Virus record (IMG/VR): IMGVR_UViG_3300044296_000239
Direction: 5' to 3' (one strand)
DNA length: 64,000 nt
DNA from: a virus
Lineage: Duplodnaviria; Heunggongvirae; Uroviricota; Caudoviricetes
A model generated the notes under the pieces. The model was given only the letters and a program-made list of their open reading frames with translations, was not told the origin of the DNA and did no database searches. This document shows positions 57,149-57,599 of the stretch, one piece after another. Each line of letters starts with the position of its first letter. Positions within the stretch are counted from its first letter, which is position 1. The translations under genes and the position numbers were made by a program.

Positions 57149-57599
57149 ATATTCTTACTCTTAGTTGTATTGTCTACGTTATGGACAACAATAACCCTAT
57201 TGTCGTTTGCTTTTATCGCCCAAACCTTATATGAGGACATCTGCAGATGCTAGCCTCAATTTCGTTTGGCACAACTATGTAACGTGTGTTTCGAACCAGT
57301 GACGTCATTGATAGTGCATTATGCAGGTGGACACTGCATTTTTCCATAAACAATACAACTAAGAGTGCTATGATCTGGTAAATCAGTTCCTTGCGAGAAC
57401 CACTCTTAAGCGAGAGTGAAGTAGTCAATTATGGAGACTTACTCATAAAACCAACTGTCTATCAGTCACAGTCTAAACTATCTGCACTTTTATGCGAGTC
57501 GTAGTGCAGCAAACTCACAACAGACTTAGTCACCGTTGCCGTGACCTTCCCATTTATAGAGCGTGGAAGAAATACGCTACTCGATTACCAGTCGAATTC

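Follow-up and report, generated by a model that had tools for sequence, protein, structure and literature searches.

Conserved structured RNA modules in the tRNA array of an uncultured T4-like lake phage

Two modules in the gap between tRNA-Glu and tRNA-Asp

A non-coding gap within the tRNA array of an uncultured large phage of lake origin was investigated for structured RNAs. The gap lies on a stretch of 64,000 nucleotides (nt) of DNA (IMG/VR record IMGVR_UViG_3300044296_000239), which is referred to here as the window. The phage is T4-like, with baseplate genes of the T4 type (gp6-like, gp5-like and wedge proteins), and the minus-strand interval 52976-58863 holds its tRNA array, in which ARAGORN detected 24 tRNAs and Rfam one more. 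Between tRNA-Glu and tRNA-Asp the gap is filled by two RNA modules, termed A1 and A2. The features of this region, in transcript order, are as follows.

57600-57675, minus strand: tRNA-Glu(UUC), detected by ARAGORN, directly upstream of A1 in the transcript and 100% identical in the closest relative
57365-57599, minus strand: RNA module A1, ∼235 nt, with eight helices, starting directly after the CCA end of tRNA-Glu
57585-57591, minus strand: loop CUGGUAA of the A1 5′ hairpin, invariant in 4/4 sequences, on a stem of 57592-57597 with 57579-57584
57375-57381, minus strand: invariant segment UUACCAG near the A1 3′ end, complementary to the loop CUGGUAA at 7/7 positions in 4/4 sequences
57155-57366, minus strand: RNA module A2, ∼212 nt, in which a closing helix (P1) of 22-23 base pairs (bp) surrounds five hairpin arms; 6 nt separate the module from tRNA-Asp
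57345-57366, minus strand: 5′ strand of A2 P1, identified as inverted repeat I4 with 57157-57176
57321-57339, minus strand: A2 helix H1, AUGCAG-UGUCCAC-CUGCAU, in which 4/6 pairs covary
57178-57219, minus strand: most conserved stretch of A2, GCGAUAAAAGCAAACG(A/G)CA..AGGGU..UGUCCAUAAC, a nearly invariant core of ∼40 nt in a 13-row alignment
57157-57178, minus strand: 3′ strand of A2 P1, identified by inverted repeat I4 and covariation
57073-57148, minus strand: tRNA-Asp(GUC), detected by ARAGORN, directly downstream of A2

An initial annotation of this DNA had described the gap as GC-richer than its surroundings, free of credible open reading frames (ORFs) and a candidate for one or more stable RNAs. 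The ARAGORN boundaries of the two tRNAs place the gap at exactly 57149-57599, as annotated, and the absence of coding capacity was confirmed. Every one of the six frames contains 4-16 stop codons, the longest ORF specifies 71 amino acids (aa) (TTG start, minus strand; 47 aa for the longest on the plus strand), and no credible match was obtained for the ORFs against Pfam and PHROGs or for six-frame translations against Pfam. The elevation in GC is modest; at 40.8% the gap exceeds the window (37.7%) and nearby ORFs (30-38%) but falls below the adjacent tRNA block (45%). A tRNA, intron-containing tRNA or tRNA-like gene in the gap was rejected, as ARAGORN (with introns and a lowered threshold) and the Rfam tRNA model found nothing credible; one low-threshold ARAGORN call within the gap was not reproduced by intron mode or by Rfam.

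The predicted fold of the gap was more stable than dinucleotide shuffles on both strands, with a z score of -4.65 on the minus and -2.4 on the plus strand. This signal arises from the tRNA-Asp-proximal half (z -6.7), driven by a 22-bp helix linking its ends, while the structure of the tRNA-Glu-proximal half is evident only from comparative data (z -1.1 alone). The initial annotation had singled out a plus-strand hairpin, ATGCAG-GTGGACA-CTGCAT, followed by a run of T, at 57326-57349. The hairpin is present at 57321-57339 (plus strand), a few bases to the left of that position, with the T-run extending to 57344; its plus-strand reading did not hold, as the RNAs run on the minus strand with the tRNAs. 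The same hairpin and T-run were rejected as an intrinsic terminator, since the pattern fits the plus strand only and every gene in this region is encoded on the minus strand. Read on the latter, the T-run becomes a 5′ A-run and the hairpin is the covarying helix H1 of A2, which follows a conserved GGAAAAA. No minus-strand terminator was found in the gap by pattern scan.

Homologues of the gap were sought by several routes, and the resulting loci are cited by L numbers. Contigs with an identical neighbour protein (L067, L068 and L080, 99.98-100% identity) represent the same phage and were uninformative, and the neighbour-protein route was limited by too few relatives and short contigs. The phage is present in JGI samples such as 3300047407 and 3300051163. 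A metagenome scan with a tRNA-like anchor pattern gave 0 matches, and 98 loci were obtained by scanning with a 31-mer taken from the conserved 3′ portion of tRNA-Glu, among them the first gap homologues. The tRNA-Asp-proximal half of the gap matched L112/L188 (80% identity) and L107, and the tRNA-Glu-proximal half matched L182. Motif scans of IMG/VR from the conserved cores then added nine genuine A2 loci, retrieved with the ∼40-nt core, and two A1 loci, all within tRNA arrays. These searches were independent of tRNA sequence. A single-sequence covariance model of A2 returned nothing in the first ∼680 kb of loci. Among 50,697 GenBank phage records no close relative of the window phage was found, and blastn against these records produced chance matches only for the gap and nothing for representatives of A2 and of a further family, B (described below). 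A bacterial origin was discounted, as 28 genome matches to an A2 19-mer were seed-only and attributable to chance.

A2 was recovered as 10 distinct sequences in 17 loci, located in tRNA arrays of uncultured freshwater phages. The MAFFT alignment of this module (A13) supports 69 pairs in 10 helices, with 91.9% paired. Both sides change in 42/69 pairs, compared with 21.7±2.4 in column shuffles (0/500 reached the observed value) and 8-16 in slid controls, in which partners were shifted by 1-3 columns. The inverted-repeat arms at 57157-57176 and 57347-57366 are 95% complementary, and 12/23 pairs of P1 change on both sides across homologues. The 7-nt loop of H1, UGUNCAC, is kept in most members (there is a one-base deletion in L107, and L205 is poorly aligned). 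The remainder of the module comprises an arm with two tiers, another that carries an NNNN-GGCC-NNNN hairpin as its cap in most members, helix H4 and a two-pair G-C stem closing a GAUAAAA loop. An internal promoter of the form TGGAAA-17 nt-CATAAT (57318-57346) was also considered and rejected, as the -10-like hexamer is changed in homologues (GCCAAT, GAAAAT) and the intervening hairpin covaries. At L195:6534-7807 (minus strand) A2 is situated within ∼1.3 kb of ORF-free DNA extending from tRNA-Cys to tRNA-Asp; the flanking ∼450 nt and ∼600 nt lack credible ORFs and may hold other non-coding RNAs.

A1 is represented by four distinct sequences, the homologues being L182:7404-7682, L205:561-839 and L206:368-648. 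In alignment A14, 48 pairs were scored with 97.9% paired, and both sides change in 17/48; the corresponding counts were 6.5±1.9 for shuffles and 0-2 for slid controls. A variable insert of ∼42 nt, carried by the other three sequences, is missing from the window copy, which keeps 7/8 scored helices, the eighth appearing to be shifted by one column in the MAFFT alignment. Five of the six pairs in the 5′ hairpin stem change on both sides. Its loop, CUGGUAA, and the segment UUACCAG are candidates for a long-range pairing between loop and tail, by which the module would be closed. The same loop is shaped like an anticodon loop (C-U-GGU-A-A), which is noted as an observation only. Further conserved features are the loop UCGCAAG and an invariant hairpin at 57451-57478. 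Covariation, one of the checks proposed at the outset, was thus positive for both halves of the gap, each of which has homologues with many compensatory changes in other phage tRNA arrays; the proposal of structured non-coding RNA was upheld, with the amendment that the gap holds two independent modules and not a single element.

Strand, modularity and further families

The strand on which selection acts was assessed from wobble pairs. Alignment cells with G·U far outnumbered those with A·C (62 versus 11 in A2, 10 versus 1 in A1 and 100 versus 8 in B), and the paired fraction dropped by 5-13 points if the modules were read on the opposite strand. The excess of G·U over A·C demonstrates that selection acts on RNA made from the tRNA strand, and not on DNA inverted repeats. 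Every module copy shares its strand with the tRNAs on either side. For most copies the distance from the preceding tRNA 3′ end is 0-3 nt and/or that to the next tRNA 5′ end is 0-8 nt; for A1 the upstream distance of 0-3 nt holds in 4/4 sequences, with a conserved 5′ GAAU or GGAU. The arrangements observed, in transcript order, were as follows.

Window: Glu-A1-A2-Asp
L206: Glu-A2-Tyr-Asp-A1-Met
L182: Asp-A1-Met
L112/L197: Glu-B-A2-Tyr
L201: B ... A2-His

A1 and A2 are independent RNAs, found apart from each other and in different array slots. The closest relative of the window phage (L001/L077, 78% aa identity in a neighbouring oxygenase) keeps tRNA-Glu (100% identity) and the tRNA-like gene downstream of the gap (91%), while the intervening A1-A2-tRNA-Asp block (window 57073-57599) is replaced as a unit in L001:980-1177. 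This pattern suggests that the block is an exchanged cassette, with recombination at the conserved tRNA genes. In other arrays tRNA-Glu and tRNA-Asp are just 4-7 nt apart, which marks the slot in the window as an insertion point.

The two shorter ORF-free gaps that had been listed as similar candidates were also examined. Both contain conserved structured RNAs with compensatory changes, and the stems initially quoted for them are present and match conserved helices of the families designated C and B.

58399-58609, minus strand: RNA module B, the whole spacer between tRNA-Ser(UGA) and tRNA-Ser(GCU), with a closing helix of ∼17 bp
53544-53807, minus strand: RNA module C, ending 2 nt before tRNA-Gly(UCC)

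Family B is widespread (26 distinct sequences in 39 loci), its copies mostly begin 0-1 nt after a tRNA, and compensatory changes were found in 28/44 pairs of a 16-sequence alignment (A12). Its conserved motifs are GGUU..CCAGUAGG, a hairpin with a conserved GACGG, CUGUAAUG and AUCC. Family C comprises 4 distinct sequences, in which 17/71 predicted pairs are compensatory, including 7/11 of the closing helix. A pairing between the B and C gaps (18-nt complementarity, pair I5) was dismissed as probably due to chance, as the C hairpin in which it falls is not kept among the homologues of C. Membership of A1, A2 and C in a superfamily with B was likewise rejected. The covariance model of B (R2) scored the window copy at 157.6 bits and matched only 58400-58609 in the window; with filters off A2 reached 9.8 bits and the reverse strand of that span 7.3 bits, which can be put down to the long stem of A2. 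R2 does not recognise A1, A2 or C, and the four are separate families.

Inter-tRNA spacers of at least 90 nt were surveyed in 13 arrays. Of these 46 spacers, ∼10 that are not themselves tRNAs can form duplexes of -17 to -30 kcal/mol between their ends, compared with a mean of -7.8 kcal/mol (5% quantile -13.6) in mismatched-end controls. Other recurrent elements were observed in the arrays. An ORF-free element of ∼200-300 nt at L001:1498-1806, also in L071, L072 and L076, is located downstream of a tRNA CCA end; it begins GUUUUG(U/A)(A/G)AGUGU(C/U)AGCAAG, has T-arm-like hairpins and no Rfam match, and may be another RNA family. It is absent from the window because a tRNA-Tyr-like gene abuts tRNA-Met there. 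More recurrent non-coding blocks lie downstream of tRNA-Asp in L072 and L074 and upstream of tRNA-Asp in L086/L091/L096 and L090/L095 (for example, GAACGUUCUGCC..AGCCAAGGGUGG and GGGUCAAGCGUGUUA..AGUUCGUAAUGCCACA); these blocks suggest still more RNA families in this niche.

Array context and known RNAs of tRNA clusters

Two further features of the window bear on the array.

57775-57803, minus strand: promoter-like site TGTACA-17 nt-TATAAT with TG extension (pattern match only)
52385-52942: HNH endonuclease gene, flanking the tRNA array

The site at 57775-57803 is the nearest upstream candidate start for a transcript of tRNA-Leu, tRNA-Glu, A1, A2 and tRNA-Asp. It is one copy of a promoter-like cassette, T(G/T)TACA-17 nt-TATAAT, repeated ahead of tRNA blocks on the minus strand (58881-58909, 58733-58761, 57775-57803 and 54414-54442); the last copy is a TTTACA variant and the TG extension occurs in 3/4 copies. 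The sole minus-strand terminator-like site identified by pattern scan sits upstream of the array. The tRNA-Asp type of the window was found again in other lake-phage arrays and is 96% identical to the tRNA-Asp of Acinetobacter phages Bestia and Ab15. In the arrays that hold the modules, many neighbouring tRNAs are only 4-10 nt apart, with no elements of this kind between them.

Several unusual genes were noted in and around the array. A tRNA-like gene without a D-arm (56991-57072, minus strand) has the acceptor stem GCGGGGA/CCCCCGC, CUCAUAA (CAU) as its anticodon loop, GAAAG-UUCGAAU-CUUUC as a good T-arm, and ACCA at the 3′ end; it was missed by default ARAGORN and Rfam, detected by the ARAGORN mitochondrial mode, and is 91% conserved in the closest relative (L001:1182-1263). 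The segment at 56815-56912 (minus strand) is a probable non-canonical tRNA-Tyr(GUA), with acceptor GGGUGUU/AACACCC plus ACCA and anticodon arm GCGGA-CUGUAAA-UCCGU; it was missed by ARAGORN and Rfam, and a normal tRNA-Tyr occupies the equivalent place in the relative. tRNA-Ile(UAU) (54444-54538, minus strand) is unusually long at 95 nt, a form also present at L001:3479-3573, L182:4808-4902 and L195:4811-4905. A tRNA with a CUA anticodon (amber-suppressor type, 'Pyl' in ARAGORN) was found at L001:5226-5300, L069:1637-1715, L107:6547-6622 and L198:2345-2419 and was not detected in the window. A long run of paralogous 2-oxoglutarate-Fe(II) oxygenase genes of ∼200 aa adjoins the array and continues within it (41833-52337 and 55914-56564, minus strand). 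A two-piece (permuted) transfer-messenger RNA of betaproteobacterial type, with the tag ANDESYALAA, is located at 41281-41703 (minus strand) and similar ones occur in relatives; its type hints at a betaproteobacterial freshwater host.

An Rfam search, also proposed initially, gave no identification. No family in Rfam 15 matched A1, A2 or B in the window, the gap or the homologous loci, at the gathering threshold or at expectation values (E) up to 10, and none of A1, A2, B and C matches Rfam 15; the gap gave two sub-threshold chance matches (FTX_3, 19.6 bits, and mir-3804, 15.5 bits). The analogy drawn initially with RNAs C and D of T4, which are transcribed from the tRNA region and have no known role (PMC3014915), holds for position and not for homology of sequence or structure. 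As in T4, A1 and A2 are non-coding RNAs of a T4-type phage, encoded among its clustered tRNA genes and on the same strand as these, and abut a tRNA; rnaD ('species 2', 119 nt) starts 1 nt after tRNA-Arg and rnaC ('species 1', 139 nt) 6 nt after rnaD. In contrast, nhmmer profiles of A1, A2, B and C found no match in T4 69500-74500, the modules described here have roughly double the length (210-280 nt), and rnaC has a tRNA-like T-arm (CCGGGUUCGAAUCCCGG) that A1 and A2 lack. RNAs C and D have also been observed experimentally, whereas A1, A2, B and C are known here from sequence alone.

GOLLD and ROOL are large, ornate structured RNAs of phages, of unknown function and typically near tRNA islands (PMC12286853). 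A full-length GOLLD (RF02032, 198 bits) with an embedded tRNA (1328-1401) was detected in a related lake phage, within its tRNA array, at L074:999-1464 (minus strand). The same search, with a threshold of 150 bits, found no GOLLD in the gap at E up to 10. The niche, that of structured RNAs in a phage tRNA array, is shared; A1, A2, B and C nevertheless score nothing on either model at E up to 10 and are 2-4 times smaller. In a 2023 catalogue of phage structured-RNA candidates (csRNA; Fremin et al., PMC10690425) the motifs are 29-151 nt. Some of the A1, A2, B and C motifs may already be present, unnamed, in large automated catalogues.

The pairing of 5′ and 3′ ends in a conserved stem that encloses a structured module recalls YrlA, the bacterial Y RNA-like RNAs, which are sometimes phage-encoded. 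The gap differs in having no Rfam YrlA match and no tRNA-like domain, and the neighbouring ORFs that were examined include no Ro/Rsr or RtcB gene.

Biogenesis, alternative explanations and meaning

On balance the data favour the view that A1 and A2 are conserved structured RNAs that are released from a tRNA precursor, accumulate and act in trans. Neither module has a promoter or terminator of its own, and we infer that both are transcribed within the tRNA-array precursor, probably from 57775-57803. As the modules abut tRNA ends and lack such signals, excision from the precursor is probable. The RNase P cut at the 5′ end of the downstream tRNA (tRNA-Asp in the case of A2) would create the module 3′ end, and the 5′ end would be freed when the upstream tRNA is matured at its 3′ side. 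The tied ends, in the form of the 22-23 bp helix of A2 and the candidate 7-nt loop-tail pairing of A1, would be expected to produce compact, exonuclease-resistant RNAs that build up in the infected cell and work in trans as folded molecules. Their complex folds, invariant loops and independence of the slot argue for trans-acting RNAs rather than mere spacers. In this role A1 and A2 would be functional counterparts of T4 RNA C/D and of GOLLD/ROOL, in the same genomic niche.

Several points weigh against this proposal. The sequences establish that the modules are conserved, covary, use the tRNA strand, lie flush with tRNAs and have been shuffled between array slots, but transcription, processing sites, accumulation and action in trans of A1 and A2 are all deduced rather than observed. 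The closest relative has neither module in this slot and carries an unrelated 120-nt hairpin-closed spacer and a different tRNA-Asp instead; the modules are therefore dispensable for that phage, which contributed nothing to the covariation analysis of the gap. A2 is ∼450-600 nt away from the nearest tRNA in some phages (L195). Folded alone, A1 is no better than shuffled sequence, and its CUGGUAA/UUACCAG pairing is invariant and hence without covariation support either way. The homologues are phylogenetically related, so the shuffle control overstates significance, a problem from which the slid control is free. Most loci were also fished with tRNA anchors, which biases the adjacency statistics.

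It is unlikely that the modules are purely cis-acting processing or insulating spacers, whose terminal helices serve as RNase III-type sites or as folding insulators between neighbouring tRNAs and whose excised pieces are degraded and play no part themselves. Helices of 17-23 bp are compatible with RNase III substrates, and the P1 helices of A2 (22-23 bp) and B (∼17 bp) fit these lengths. The enrichment of strong terminal helices among non-coding inter-tRNA spacers (∼10/46, against the control mean) and the simple hairpin-closed spacer of the closest relative point the same way. However, 200-280 nt with 5-8 covarying internal helices exceeds what an insulator or cleavage site needs, as do the near-invariant parts (the 40-nt A2 core, the A1 loops CUGGUAA and UCGCAAG, and the hairpin 57451-57478). 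The same module also occurs beside different tRNAs and sometimes far from any, and the many tRNAs separated by 4-10 nt in these arrays have no such elements.

That one or both modules are self-cleaving ribozymes which mature the neighbouring tRNA appears quite improbable. The model would be the 'theta' ribozymes, which are like those of hepatitis delta virus (HDV) and adjoin phage tRNAs, and A1 and A2 resemble them as structured RNAs flush against a phage tRNA gene. The start of A1 at 0-3 nt past the tRNA in 4/4 sequences with its conserved 5′ end, the 0-1 nt offset of most B copies and the pseudoknot-like loop-tail pairing in A1 are in keeping with such an activity, and large complex-folded bacterial non-coding RNAs are often catalytic. 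Yet searches at E up to 10 matched no known ribozyme family, the fold is unlike the nested double pseudoknot of HDV-like ribozymes, and tRNA-processing enzymes suffice for the module boundaries.

Very improbable, in our estimation, is that the modules are DNA mobile elements, either homing cassettes or elements resembling miniature inverted-repeat transposable elements, with terminal inverted repeats and incidental RNA folds. A2 does have terminal inverted repeats of 20-22 bp, the modules take different slots in different phages, and A1-A2-tRNA-Asp is polymorphic for presence, being replaced in the relative, where the flanking tRNA-Glu (100% identical) and the downstream tRNA-like gene (91% identical) are kept. 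Against this, the G·U excess over A·C is 6- to 12-fold and specific to strand and to RNA, and compensatory changes extend beyond the termini to internal helices. Each module is single-copy within the 64-kb window, there is no target-site duplication except a 4-nt GAAT that is likely due to chance, and no transposase or endonuclease remnant is detectable in the gap; the mobility is accounted for just as well by an exchange of cassettes through recombination at conserved tRNA genes. A decayed protein gene, such as a homing endonuclease like segB, which lies among the T4 tRNA genes, would fit the HNH endonuclease gene flanking the array but is extremely unlikely given the stop codons in all frames, the absence of Pfam and PHROGs matches and conservation that tracks base-pairing and not codons.

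The locus adds four unrelated, well-supported RNA families, all from uncultured phages, to the niche of the phage tRNA cluster, and these belong to a known kind of system, the phage tRNA-cluster RNAs of unknown function. What such RNAs do has been a question since T4 RNA C/D were described, and GOLLD and ROOL continue to pose it. Few large RNAs of bacteria or phages have many covarying helices, and those characterised are often ribozymes or perform other complex RNA-based tasks. More tentatively, A1, A2, B and C may represent classes of large phage RNA (200-280 nt, with complex folds) that have not been described before, depend on tRNA processing for their biogenesis and have an RNA-based role in infection, although we hold this with somewhat less than even confidence. 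Candidate roles are self-processing at tRNA junctions, RNA-only assemblies like GOLLD/ROOL, and decoys for host tRNA-directed nucleases. At 210-280 nt the modules are compact targets for biochemistry and cryo-electron microscopy. They behave as interchangeable cassettes flush with tRNA ends, which supports the concept of the arrays as a general production line for structured RNAs; on the more tentative reading above, the tRNA arrays of freshwater T4-like phages would be a general expression platform for diverse structured RNAs.

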